From sequence record FJ539132.1: a stretch of DNA of 4,241 nucleotides. The stretch is one strand, 5' to 3'. The notes under the pieces were generated by a model. The model searched no databases and was not told where the DNA came from. It saw only the letters and a program-made list of their open reading frames with translations. This document shows positions 1 through 4,241 of the stretch, piece after piece. Every line of letters begins with the position of its first letter. Positions within the stretch are counted from its first letter, which is position 1. This DNA is from Qubevirus faecium. The translations under genes and the position numbers were made by a program.

Positions 1-51
1 GGGGTAGGCCCCGTAAGGGGCCTGCCTTCACCGCACTACAGAGGAGAATCT
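1..51 (+). promoter_or_regulatory. 5' untranslated leader with terminal GGGG and a 5'-proximal hairpin (stem 5-12 / 17-24, GUAA tetraloop 13-16)
   Basis: Seen: AGGCCCC (6-12) is the exact reverse complement of GGGGCCT (17-23), extended by a U5-G24 wobble, with a GNRA-type loop GUAA. Established: Qbeta and MS2 RNAs begin with G-runs followed by a stable 5' hairpin; the complement of this end is the 3' CCC initiation site of the minus strand. Confidence 0.7.
41..46 (+). promoter_or_regulatory. Shine-Dalgarno sequence (GAGGAG) for the maturation protein gene
   Basis: Seen: GAGGAG at 41-46, 5 nt upstream of ATG 52. Confidence 0.7.
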
Positions 52-2402: not shown

Positions 2403-2422
2403 TAGCATGTCTAAGACAGCTA
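2403..2422 (+). promoter_or_regulatory. Coat-protein translational operator hairpin covering the replicase start codon (8-bp stem, bulged A2407, 3-nt loop UAA 2412-2414)
   Basis: Seen: UAGC-A-UGUC (2403-2411) pairs with GACAGCUA (2415-2422); the unpaired bulge A is the A of the AUG at 2407-2409. Recalled: the Qbeta operator has the same 8-bp stem, bulged A and 3-nt loop, and coat dimers bind it to repress replicase translation. Confidence 0.75.
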
Positions 2423-4137
2423 GTCACAGAAAGAAAATTACTCACCTATTGAGTAAGGTCGACATCGACTTCGAAGACGACATCCATATGTCTATCGCCA
2501 ATGATCTTTTTAAGGCCTTTGGCGTTGCACCACTTACGTCAGCGGAGCAGTGTATCAACACTCCGTTCCCTGACACTTCGATGACTGCTGATGCATTTCG
2601 CATCGCGTATCTGCGGTCAGAGATCCTTAGTAAGTATAGTGCGCACCCTCTCGGTATTGATACCGAAGCAGTAGCTTGGGAGAAGTTCCTAGCTGCTGAA
2701 GAGGGCTGTAGACAAACGAACGAACGACTGTCGCAGGCTAAGTACCATGACAATTCCATTTTGTCATGGGGCGAGCGTGTTATCCACACTGCTCGTCGAA
2801 AAATACTTAAGCTTATAGGCGAGTCTGTTCCGCTCGGGGATGTGGCGCTGCGCTGCCGATTTTCTGGCGGCGCGACGACCTCGGTTAACCGTTTACACGG
2901 CCACCCGTCGTGGAAGCATGCCTGTCCGCAGGATGTTACCAAACGCGCATTCAAATACCTACAAGCGTATAAAATGGCTTGTGGTGACATCGTAGACTTA
3001 CGTGTCAATGAGGTGCGCACTTCGAATAAAGCAGTCACTGTTCCAAAGAACAGTAAGACCGATCGTTGCATTGCCATCGAACCCGGATGGAATATGTTTT
3101 TCCAACTGGGTGTCGGTGCGGTGCTACGCGATAGGTTGCGCCTTTGGGGGATTGACCTTAATGATCAATCCATCAATCAGCGCCTCGCACGCGATGCGTC
3201 ACAGCTTGACCATTTGGCCACTGTTGACTTATCCGCAGCAAGTGATTCAATCAGCCTTAAGCTGGTGGAGTTACTACTACCGCCTGACTGGTTTGGCGTC
3301 CTGACCGATCTCCGATCGGATCAGGGTATCCTACCTGATGGGCGTGCCGTTACCTACGAGAAAATATCCTCCATGGGTAATGGCTACACTTTCGAGCTTG
3401 AGTCGCTCATATTTGCAGCGATCGCTCGGAGTGTGTGCGAGTTACTGGATCTTGACCAATCAACTGTCAGCGTGTACGGAGATGATATAATCATCGATTC
3501 CCGTGCTGCTGCAACCCTTATGGATGTGTTCGAGTACGTTGGGTTCACCCCTAACAGAAAGAAGACCTTTGTAAGTGGTCCCTTTAGAGAGTCGTGCGGA
3601 AAGCACTGGCACTCTGGGGTTGATGTAACGCCTTTTTACATACGCCGCCCAATACGTTGCCTAGTCGACATGATACTTGTTCTGAATAGTATCTATCGGT
3701 GGGGCACGATTGACGGCGTATGGGATCCTAGGGTGCTGCCCGTATACCAGAAGTACGTGAATATGCTGCCGAGAAATTGGCGGCGTAACACGATACCTGA
3801 TGGTTACGGAGACGGCGCTCTCGTCGGATTGGCTACAACGAATCCGTTTGTTATAGTCAAGAATTTCTCGAGACTATACCCGGTATTAGTTGAAGTCCAG
3901 AAGGACGTCAAGCGTCACGAGTACGGCAGTTATTTATATGCCATGCTACGCGACCGCGAGACACGTTACAATCCCTTCCTGCGTGTCGCAGATGGGACTG
4001 GGTTTGATGAAGCACCGCTAGCTACTAGCCTTCGTCGCAAGACAGGTCGGTACAAAGTGGCGTGGATTCAGGACAGTGCCTTCATCCGGCCCCCGTATTT
4101 TCTTACGGGACTTCCCGAGGTGAAGCTTGCTAGCTAG
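2407..4137 (+). CDS. RNA-dependent RNA polymerase, replicase beta subunit (576 aa)
   Basis: Seen: ATG 2407 with SD, TAG stop at 4135-4137; palm motifs in frame: motif A TVDLSAASDSI (3220-3252), motif B SSMGNGYTFELESLIF (3367-3414), motif C YGDD (3475-3486). Recalled: N-terminus MSKTAS and many blocks (GIDTEAVAWEKFLAAE, CRFSGGATT, NKAVTVPKNSKTDRCIAIEPGWNMFFQLG, YEKISSMGNGYTFELESLIFA, FRESCGKH, TIDGVWDPR, IPDGYGDGALVG) match Qbeta replicase. Confidence 0.96.
   Translation: MSKTASHRKKITHLLSKVDIDFEDDIHMSIANDLFKAFGVAPLTSAEQCINTPFPDTSMTADAFRIAYLRSEILSKYSAHPLGIDTEAVAWEKFLAAEEGCRQTNERLSQAKYHDNSILSWGERVIHTARRKILKLIGESVPLGDVALRCRFSGGATTSVNRLHGHPSWKHACPQDVTKRAFKYLQAYKMACGDIVDLRVNEVRTSNKAVTVPKNSKTDRCIAIEPGWNMFFQLGVGAVLRDRLRLWGIDLNDQSINQRLARDASQLDHLATVDLSAASDSISLKLVELLLPPDWFGVLTDLRSDQGILPDGRAVTYEKISSMGNGYTFELESLIFAAIARSVCELLDLDQSTVSVYGDDIIIDSRAAATLMDVFEYVGFTPNRKKTFVSGPFRESCGKHWHSGVDVTPFYIRRPIRCLVDMILVLNSIYRWGTIDGVWDPRVLPVYQKYVNMLPRNWRRNTIPDGYGDGALVGLATTNPFVIVKNFSRLYPVLVEVQKDVKRHEYGSYLYAMLRDRETRYNPFLRVADGTGFDEAPLATSLRRKTGRYKVAWIQDSAFIRPPYFLTGLPEVKLAS
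3475..3486 (+). other. RdRp catalytic motif C (YGDD) within the replicase
   Basis: Seen: TAC GGA GAT GAT in the replicase frame (codon offset 356 from ATG 2407). Established: YGDD is the catalytic motif of levivirus replicases. Confidence 0.9.
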
Positions 4138-4148
4138 ACACTAGCTAG
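4130..4148 (+). other. Perfect hairpin over the replicase stop codon: two copies of the self-complementary octamer CUAGCUAG separated by ACA
   Basis: Seen: CTAGCTAG at 4130-4137 and again at 4141-4148 with loop ACA (4138-4140), giving an 8-bp perfect stem; the replicase UAG (4135-4137) is in the 5' arm. Confidence 0.6.
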
Positions 4149-4241
4149 TAATGGGAAGGGGCTCATTTGAGGCCCCGGAAGGAGAAAGAAAGAAAACTCC
4201 CTCCTGAGAGGGTGGGCTCTGCTTTGCCCTCTCTCCTCCCA
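4138..4241 (+). promoter_or_regulatory. 3' untranslated region with hairpins (for example 4158-4176 GGGGCU...GGCCCC; 4199-4212 CCCUC/GAGGG) and terminal ...CUCUCCUCCCA
   Basis: Seen: stem-loops as listed; pyrimidine-rich tail ending CCCA. Recalled: Qbeta RNA ends ...GCUUUGCCCUCUCUCCUCCCA, almost identical to 4221-4241. Established: replicase initiates opposite the 3' CCC, and the terminal A is added non-templated. Confidence 0.75.

Follow-up and report, generated by a model that had tools for sequence, protein, structure and literature searches.

Genome organization and completeness

The window, that is, the whole 4,241-nt stretch analyzed here, carries four collinear plus-strand genes in its ORF list. 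The maturation (A2) protein (440 aa) is encoded at nt 52–1374, with the start codon at nt 52. The coat protein (132 aa) starts with the ATG at nt 1395 and stops at nt 1791–1793, its read-through extension continues to nt 2387, and the replicase β subunit (576 aa) occupies nt 2407–4137, all on the plus strand. The four ORFs matched Phage_mat-A, Levi_coat, Read-through, and RNA_replicase_B (Pfam, E-values of 1e-48 to 1e-242). The maturation, coat, and replicase genes that make up the set of a levivirus-type plus-strand RNA phage are all present.

The window was aligned end to end with the group IV Qubevirus faecium genomes HB-P24, NL95, BR1, BR8, and SP at 82–84% identity, and Qβ-type genomes aligned over parts of it at ~70% identity. 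The A2 and replicase sequences of the window were exact matches to ACT66749.1 and ACT66752.1 (Qubevirus faecium). The window proteins correspond to ACT66749–ACT66752, and those of HB-P24 (FJ539133) are the next in the series (ACT66753–56). Judging from these adjoining protein accessions, the window strain is almost certainly HB-P22, from the same study as HB-P24. The window is thus a published isolate genome, a complete genome of group IV Qubevirus faecium that extends from GGGG to CCCA-3′.

The first-pass annotation had taken the 5′ end of the window for the true genome terminus, and the sequence comparison speaks for this. Nucleotide 1 of the window aligned with position 1 of the full-length relatives HB-P24, BR1, and BR8 and with position 2 of NL95, the sequence begins with the G cluster, and it ends with CUCCUCCCA. 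The 5′ G cluster comprises 3–5 G across full-length Qubevirus records (five in NL95), so the G count at the 5′ end of the window may be off by one in either direction. The 3′-terminal CUCCUCCCA (nt 4233–4241, plus strand) was identical in 16 of the 16 Qubevirus sequences compared, window included, which indicates that the window is complete at its 3′ end too.

Structure and predicted stability of the 5′-terminal hairpin

The plus strand opens with the G cluster GGGG (nt 1–4), followed by a core hairpin that is evident from both the sequence and its folds. The 5′ arm UAGGCCCC (nt 5–12) and the 3′ arm GGGGCCUG (nt 17–24, also found in the independent assemblies L029, L031, and L032) enclose a GUAA tetraloop (nt 13–16). 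The arms are joined by the wobble pair U5:G24 and by the Watson-Crick pairs A6:U23, G7:C22, G8:C21, C9:G20, C10:G19, C11:G18, and C12:G17. When nt 1–24 were folded alone (ViennaRNA), exactly this core structure was obtained, with −16.1 kcal/mol. Sequence and fold therefore agree with the first-pass annotation, which had described GGGG followed, from nt 5, by a 7-bp stem plus one wobble pair with a GUAA cap. Dinucleotide shuffles of nt 1–24 had a mean of −9.7 kcal/mol (z = −2.4 for the observed value), and 2 of the 200 were as stable.

The helix is predicted to extend beyond this core. With nt 25–27 included in the fold, CCU (nt 25–27) paired with the 5′ Gs, adding G4:C25 (P at least 0.997), G3:C26 (P at least 0.96), and G2:U27 (P 0.5–0.83). 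An equivalent CCU or CUC is present in all eight of the distinct Qubevirus 5′ ends. The complete predicted hairpin (nt 2–27) comprises 11 bp and the tetraloop at about −24 kcal/mol (−24.2 to −24.5 kcal/mol), and its unpaired 5′ bases are G1 and, in part, G2. The pairing of G2–G4 is a thermodynamic prediction, weakest at G2:U27. The earlier description of GGGG as a separate terminus ahead of the hairpin consequently had to be abandoned, as three of the four Gs are predicted to lie within the helix. The remainder of the 5′ UTR (nt 28–51) contains a Shine-Dalgarno-like GAGGAG (nt 41–46) ahead of the A2 start at nt 52.

The core hairpin was insensitive to the length of RNA folded. The pairs of nt 5–24 had probabilities of at least 0.999 in partition-function folds of 60, 200, 500, 1000, and 1500 nt, the first of which is the folding check that had been proposed for this locus, and a probability of ~1.0 when the 5′ 600 nt and the 3′ 700 nt were fused into a chimera and folded together. 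The full-length minimum free energy (MFE) structure (−1762.9 kcal/mol) kept the hairpin as well. The full-length context was judged from this MFE structure, and partition functions were run on the sub-lengths and the chimera.

The 27-nt and 30-nt segments that start at nt 1 were the most stable among the ~4,200 in the genome. The 30-nt segment (−24.5 kcal/mol) ranked 1 of 4,212 (mean −5.2, sd 3.3, z = −5.8). In 2 of 300 whole-genome dinucleotide shuffles, a perfect hairpin with 7 bp or more was placed within the first 6 nt. These folds predict a stable, G+C-rich helix at the very 5′ terminus.

A whole-genome count of perfect hairpins (7 bp or more, loops of 3–8 nt) gave 14 entries (~10 distinct sites), compared with a mean of 1.5 in dinucleotide shuffles. 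This excess agrees with the dense secondary structure for which such phage genomes are known. The second most stable local hairpin in 27–30-nt segments (−18.6 kcal/mol) lies at ~109–140, inside the A2 gene, around ACGAGCUC…GGAGCUCGU, and has a counterpart in BR1 at about 114. A near-perfect palindromic hairpin of 11 bp (nt 4127–4151, cuuGCUAGCUAGacaCUAGCUAGuaa) spans the stop codon of the replicase gene.

Conservation of the hairpin

The comparative set consisted of ~15 isolate genomes. A GC-rich hairpin within the first 25–30 nt was found in Qβ, M11, MX1, NL95, HB-P24, BR1/BR8, MS2, PP7, PRR1, and AP205. In BR1 and BR8, the first 57 nt are identical to those of the window. Qβ has the stem GACCCCC/GGGGGUC, and M11 and MX1 have (U)CCCCCC/GGGGGG(U). 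After the stem, group IV genomes offer CCU as a partner to the 5′ Gs, Qβ-like genomes offer A/U-CCU, and M11 and MX1 offer A-CUC. The 5′ Gs are likewise predicted to pair into the helix in MS2, PP7, and PRR1. The hairpins of MS2, PP7, PRR1, and AP205 are tetraloop hairpins in the first 26–30 nt, with −19 to −23 kcal/mol. The earlier suggestion that the element is the counterpart of the 5′ hairpin of Qβ and MS2 is borne out, since the genome is that of a Qubevirus and the first 25–30 nt of Qβ, MS2, and relatives contain such hairpins. The 5′ 30-mer ranked first in stability in six of the nine reliable genomes (window, BR1, HB-P24, NL95, TW18, and BZ1) and 4–12 in Qβ, M11, and MX1, each within its own genome.

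MAFFT alignments put the 5′ ends of groups III and IV out of structural register and were replaced by a loop-anchored hand alignment of 8 distinct 5′ ends from three clades, fitted to the structure and with gaps written as N. The proportion of paired cells in this hand alignment was 97.6%, compared with 87.2% in shuffles, and the covariation score was 0.390, compared with 0.184; none of the 500 shuffles reached the observed value of either measure. Slid controls reached at most 72.7% paired. Changes on both sides occurred at three pairs (A:U/G:C, G:C/A:U/C:G, and G:C/C:G). Because only three clades are represented, this covariation rests on roughly two independent events. As judged from the aligned sequences, the structure is conserved while the sequence of the stem varies across Qubevirus clades.

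Two records departed from this pattern. The SP record X07489 (nt 1–30) reads GGGGGUAGGGGGGAUAAAGGGGGCCUGCC, which makes the inner stem impossible, and its 5′ segment ranked 157. The first bases of this record are repeated in GQ153935. As the SP-like BR1 and BR8 have GGCCCC at this place and a normal hairpin, we suspect that the SP 5′ end contains a GC-compression error of the 1988 sequence that was carried into later records. The hairpin of GA (NC_001426) is weaker and displaced to nt 13–39, for which an old sequencing error is likewise suspected.

Further 5′ ends were sought in public sequence collections. A scan of viral contigs with the A2 protein as query found nothing beyond SP, FI, and five distant contigs without true termini, and exact-pattern scans of metagenome and viral contigs with the conserved UTR segment returned one chimeric contig and SP only. 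Logan RNA-seq assemblies of ~90%-identical relatives (L029–L032) start at window nt 11, 14, 18, and 21. These assemblies confirm nt 11–51, including the loop GUAA and the 3′ arm. All four begin inside the hairpin, which indicates that routine assemblies lose the phage terminus. The chimeric metagenome contig L023 (MAVO01000006.1, 2700–2783, minus strand) is broken at the hairpin loop, where A2-gene-like sequence is joined to C-GUAA-GGGGCCUGCCUUCACC…. The junction has the look of an artefact that the stable hairpin caused during reverse transcription or assembly. A scan of both strands of the window with Rfam 15 (E-value of at most 1) gave zero family matches. The levivirus 5′ UTR was absent from Rfam as of 2015 (PMC4615214).

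Loop sequence

The loop G13 U14 A15 A16, closed by the Watson-Crick pair C12:G17, fits the GNRA consensus by sequence, and GUAA is also present in BR1, BR8, the Logan contig L029, and the metagenome contig L023. This consensus is not kept among the homologues. The loop is AUAA in NL95 and AUAAA in HB-P24, UUUA in Qβ, CGUA in M11, GUA in MX1, and CUUA in TW18, HL4-9, BR12, VK, and BZ1. When these loops were swapped into the window background, the predicted energy changed by 0 to 1.3 kcal/mol out of 24.5. The GNRA cap, which the first-pass annotation had presented as a feature of the hairpin, is strain-specific and is absent from NL95, HB-P24, and every group III genome. From these comparisons, the type of loop is not conserved and appears neither to define the element nor to take part in its mechanism.

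Folding of the minus strand and of the nascent plus strand

At its 3′ end, the minus strand carries the complement of the hairpin (nt 1–27), …AGGCAGGCCCCUUACGGGGCCUACCCC, to which a non-templated A is added. The first-pass annotation had called for folding of the reverse complement, and a 3′ hairpin indeed formed there. It consists of 7 bp, two A·C mismatches, and 2 outer G:C pairs, and it is weaker than its plus-strand counterpart (−18.0 kcal/mol for the complement of nt 1–32 plus the non-templated A, compared with −24.5 kcal/mol). The difference of ~6.5 kcal/mol arises because the minus strand has A·C mismatches in place of U5:G24 and G2:U27. In 60-nt contexts, the last two C of the minus strand were unpaired with P ~0.8, as was mostly the terminal A, whereas G2–G4 of the plus strand were paired with a probability of at least 0.9. 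An asymmetry in the same direction was obtained for HB-P24, NL95, M11, MX1, MS2, and AP205.

The plus- and minus-strand hairpins together make up for 63% of the 27-bp plus/minus duplex energy, compared with a genome mean of 16% (rank 1 of 1,405). Folding of successive prefixes of the plus strand gave a mini-hairpin GGGG:CCCC at 12–20 nt (−5.4 to −7.1 kcal/mol), a switch to the main hairpin at 21 nt, and the complete hairpin at 27 nt (−24.2 kcal/mol).

Long-range pairing of the 5′ UTR

In the full-length MFE structure, GAAUCUAUGCCA (nt 46–57, including the AUG at nt 52–54) was paired with UGGCGUGGAUUC (nt 4058–4069) in the 3′ end of the replicase ORF, and GCACU (nt 33–37) was paired with nt 4075–4079. 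Across nine group IV genomes with an overall identity of only ~80%, the 26-nt 3′ site AAAGUGGCGUGGAUUCAGGACAGUGC is near-invariant even at wobble positions. Substitutions in it are few, and each breaks a pair without compensation; several alternative partners have similar duplex energy.

Directly after the core hairpin, CCUUCACCG (nt 25–33) has a perfect 9-nt complement at nt 986–994 and a 7-nt complement at nt 4119–4125. In HB-P24 and NL95, which carry C31A, the invariant nt 4119–4125 are unchanged, and no perfect 7-nt complement was found at the site at nt 986–994 either. As C31A is uncompensated, covariation lends no support to the long-range pairings of CCUUCACCG. The helix between nt 26–32 and nt 4119–4125, which appeared in a small cofold, was rejected on account of this uncompensated change and its absence from larger folds.

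Discussion

The predicted hairpin at nt 2–27 is the most stable local helix of this genome, lies at its terminus, and keeps its structure across Qubevirus clades. Very probably, it is the conserved 5′-terminal replication hairpin of a Qubevirus (Qβ/SP-type) plus-strand RNA genome. Such an element is already known from ssRNA phages of the Fiersviridae/Leviviricetes, and the window provides one more instance of it. A conserved 5′ GC-rich hairpin of ssRNA phages has been implicated in replication (PMC3561173), and a model of the Qβ 5′ hairpin is credited to Beekwilder et al. 1996, as cited in the same paper. A requirement of the hairpin for replication is suggested here by analogy with Qβ, MS2, and small replicase templates, and "suggested" is also the wording of the cited source.

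Several lines of background bear on how the hairpin might act. Both strands carry 5′-GG and CCA-3′, with a non-templated 3′ A and GTP initiation at the penultimate C (PMC4200798), and product and template separate after about 9–10 nt (PMC4200798, Tomita review). The template requirements of the replicase include 5′-terminal stems and 3′ CCC (PMC4652763), and small non-coding templates of Qβ replicase need 5′ stems, according to Biebricher & Luce 1993 as cited in PMC4652763. With the MS2 replicase, constructs with terminal hairpins alone are poor templates, so the hairpin is not sufficient.

We propose that the replicase would start each plus strand with pppGGGG, setting GTP against the run of C at the minus-strand 3′ end. 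The nascent chain could fold back on itself by 12 nt, adopt the main hairpin from 21 nt, and complete it at 27 nt. Exponential replication needs product and template to be single-stranded, and 5′ stems are said to act, in the classical view of Biebricher and Luce in 1993, by stopping product-template annealing. Fast self-folding of the 5′ end would oppose the re-annealing of product and template and so keep both single-stranded, and the recovery of 63% of the duplex energy by the two hairpins would help in this. The weaker 3′ hairpin of the minus strand would leave the terminal CC(A) exposed, so that plus strands could be initiated there de novo. In contrast, the 5′ Gs of the plus strand would be locked in a helix. 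As a probable side benefit, a triphosphorylated 5′ end with 1–2 unpaired nt at most would be a poor substrate for E. coli RppH and for RNase E acting from the 5′ end.

A bolder variant of this scheme, which we regard as a long shot, would treat the 5′ Gs as a three-state switch and not as a passive part of the stem, with C9–C12, then CCU 25–27, and then the 3′-terminal CCC as successive partners. The first state would be the transient mini-hairpin GGGG-UAGG-CCCC at chain lengths of 12–20 nt, in group IV only. In the second state, the Gs would sit on CCU 25–27 and give a closed, protected end. In the third, they would be handed to the 3′-terminal CCC, forming the terminal helix that has been proposed for legitimate Qβ replicase templates. 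The G·U pairs 5:24 and 2:27 would set the balance in one way in the plus strand and in another in the minus strand.

Other explanations of the hairpin were weighed against the replication role. That it is a chance palindrome, or terminal sequence introduced by primers or cloning, can hardly be true. The first 57 nt are admittedly shared without change by BR1 and BR8, which come from the same study, though the genomes are only ~82% identical; however, the hairpin ranks first in stability and is conserved across clades, HB-P24 of the same accession series differs at three positions, and independent RNA-seq assemblies of ~90%-identical relatives confirm nt 11–51. We also consider it very improbable that the GNRA loop is a specific recognition element, serving in tetraloop-receptor docking or in binding of the coat protein, A2, or the replicase. 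A GUAA closed by C:G is a canonical GNRA loop, and it recurs in BR1, BR8, L029, and L023, but the close relatives NL95 and HB-P24 have AUAA and AUAAA, group III has UUUA, CUUA, CGUA, or GUA, and none of the swaps shifted the predicted stability by more than 1.3 kcal/mol. Control of the maturation (A2) gene in the manner of MS2, in which the hairpin would position CCUUC (nt 25–29) to pair with the Shine-Dalgarno GGAG (nt 43–46), is quite unlikely. By sequence, CUUC (nt 26–29) is able to pair with GGAG, and the same CCU competes for the 5′ Gs. This pairing of four base pairs, one of them a G·U, is nevertheless weak, and it was used in none of the folds from 60 to 4,241 nt, in which nt 25–27 stayed in the hairpin and the A2 start region paired with distant partners instead.

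The two remaining explanations concern the ends of the RNA. According to one, the genome would be functionally circular, with the 5′ GGG paired to the 3′-terminal CCC and stacked on the hairpin, and the replicase would recognize this 5′-3′ junction. The 5′ and 3′ termini have been proposed to cooperate, and PMC4652763 names a long-range 5′-3′ interaction among the template requirements, citing Ugarov & Chetverin 2008. In a cofold of nt 1–60 with the last 130 nt, the MFE structure paired G1–G3 with C4238–C4240 beside a hairpin at nt 4–25. In the chimera, by contrast, the local CCU (nt 25–27) out-competed the 3′-terminal CCC for the 5′ Gs (P 0.71–1.0 for the local pairing, compared with 0.03–0.07 end to end). 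Moreover, the full-length MFE structure paired the 3′ CCCA with nt 4152–4156 instead, the accompanying helix 26–32:4119–4125 is left without compensation for C31A in HB-P24 and NL95, and the MS2 replicase does not need both termini. Circularity is thus an unlikely account. The same probabilities bear on the statement of the first-pass annotation that the hairpin keeps the ends from annealing: the folds do not contradict it, but the wording is imprecise, as published work names a 5′-terminal stem as a template requirement and mentions a proposal that the termini cooperate. The other explanation, that the hairpin chiefly buries the triphosphorylated 5′ end against E. coli RppH and the 5′ sensor of RNase E, is possible without being probable. 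At most 1–2 unpaired 5′ nt were predicted in the sub-length, chimera, and full-length folds, and both RppH and RNase E depend on two or more unpaired 5′ nt, with a 5′ stem-loop blocking RppH (PMC8833179). E. coli mRNAs are stabilized by 5′ stem-loops, according to references listed in PMC3997798. Purely by analogy, the phage RNA might be protected from these enzymes in the same way. Against protection as the chief role, small non-coding templates replicated by Qβ replicase in vitro without nucleases are also reported to need 5′ stems (Biebricher & Luce 1993, via PMC4652763), which points to replication itself. A protective role is compatible with the replication role and does not exclude it.

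If the hairpin is the replication element, it illustrates the textbook rule for Qβ-type replicases, by which a strong 5′ stem on one strand goes with a more loosely paired 3′ end on its complement. The refinements to this rule are incremental: the 5′ Gs are predicted to lie inside the helix, the loop appears free to vary, and the G·U pairs would produce the asymmetry between strands. They could guide the design of replicable RNAs. For annotation, the hairpin and the terminal CCCA support reading the 4,241-nt sequence as a terminus-to-terminus genome. Such support is useful because metagenomic and RNA-seq assemblies routinely stop inside the hairpin, as L029–L032 and the chimeric L023 do.

Among known systems, the E. 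coli mRNA stem-loops of the ompA/papA type share with the hairpin a helix within 0–2 nt of a triphosphorylated 5′ end. These are cellular mRNAs transcribed from DNA, and the likeness to the phage hairpin would be one of function only. The small RNAs replicated by Qβ replicase, as far as the cited source describes them, share the rule of a stable 5′ stem and a less tightly paired, C-rich 3′ end. They are short and non-coding, and both of their strands follow the rule, whereas here the 5′ end of the plus strand was compared with its complement.

The hairpin of MS2 (Emesvirus), which is part of a conserved 5′ UTR structure (PMC4615214), is similar to that of the window: a tetraloop closes a GC-rich stem in the first 28 nt, the 5′ GGG takes part in the helix, and in MS2, too, several G·U pairs weaken the minus-strand complement. 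The two have no sequence homology. [quoted passage not shown]

The 5′ hairpins of Qβ and other Qubevirus genomes agree with that of the window in position directly after the 5′ G cluster, in genome type, and in gene order. The shared architecture is a G/C-rich inner stem of 6–8 bp, a loop of 3–5 nt, and a downstream CCU or CUC with which the 5′ Gs can pair. Compared with Qβ, the window has the stem AGGCCCC/GGGGCCU instead of GACCCCC/GGGGGUC, a U:G pair at the site of a bulged A in Qβ, the loop GUAA instead of UUUA, and a predicted energy of −24.5 instead of −17.7 kcal/mol.
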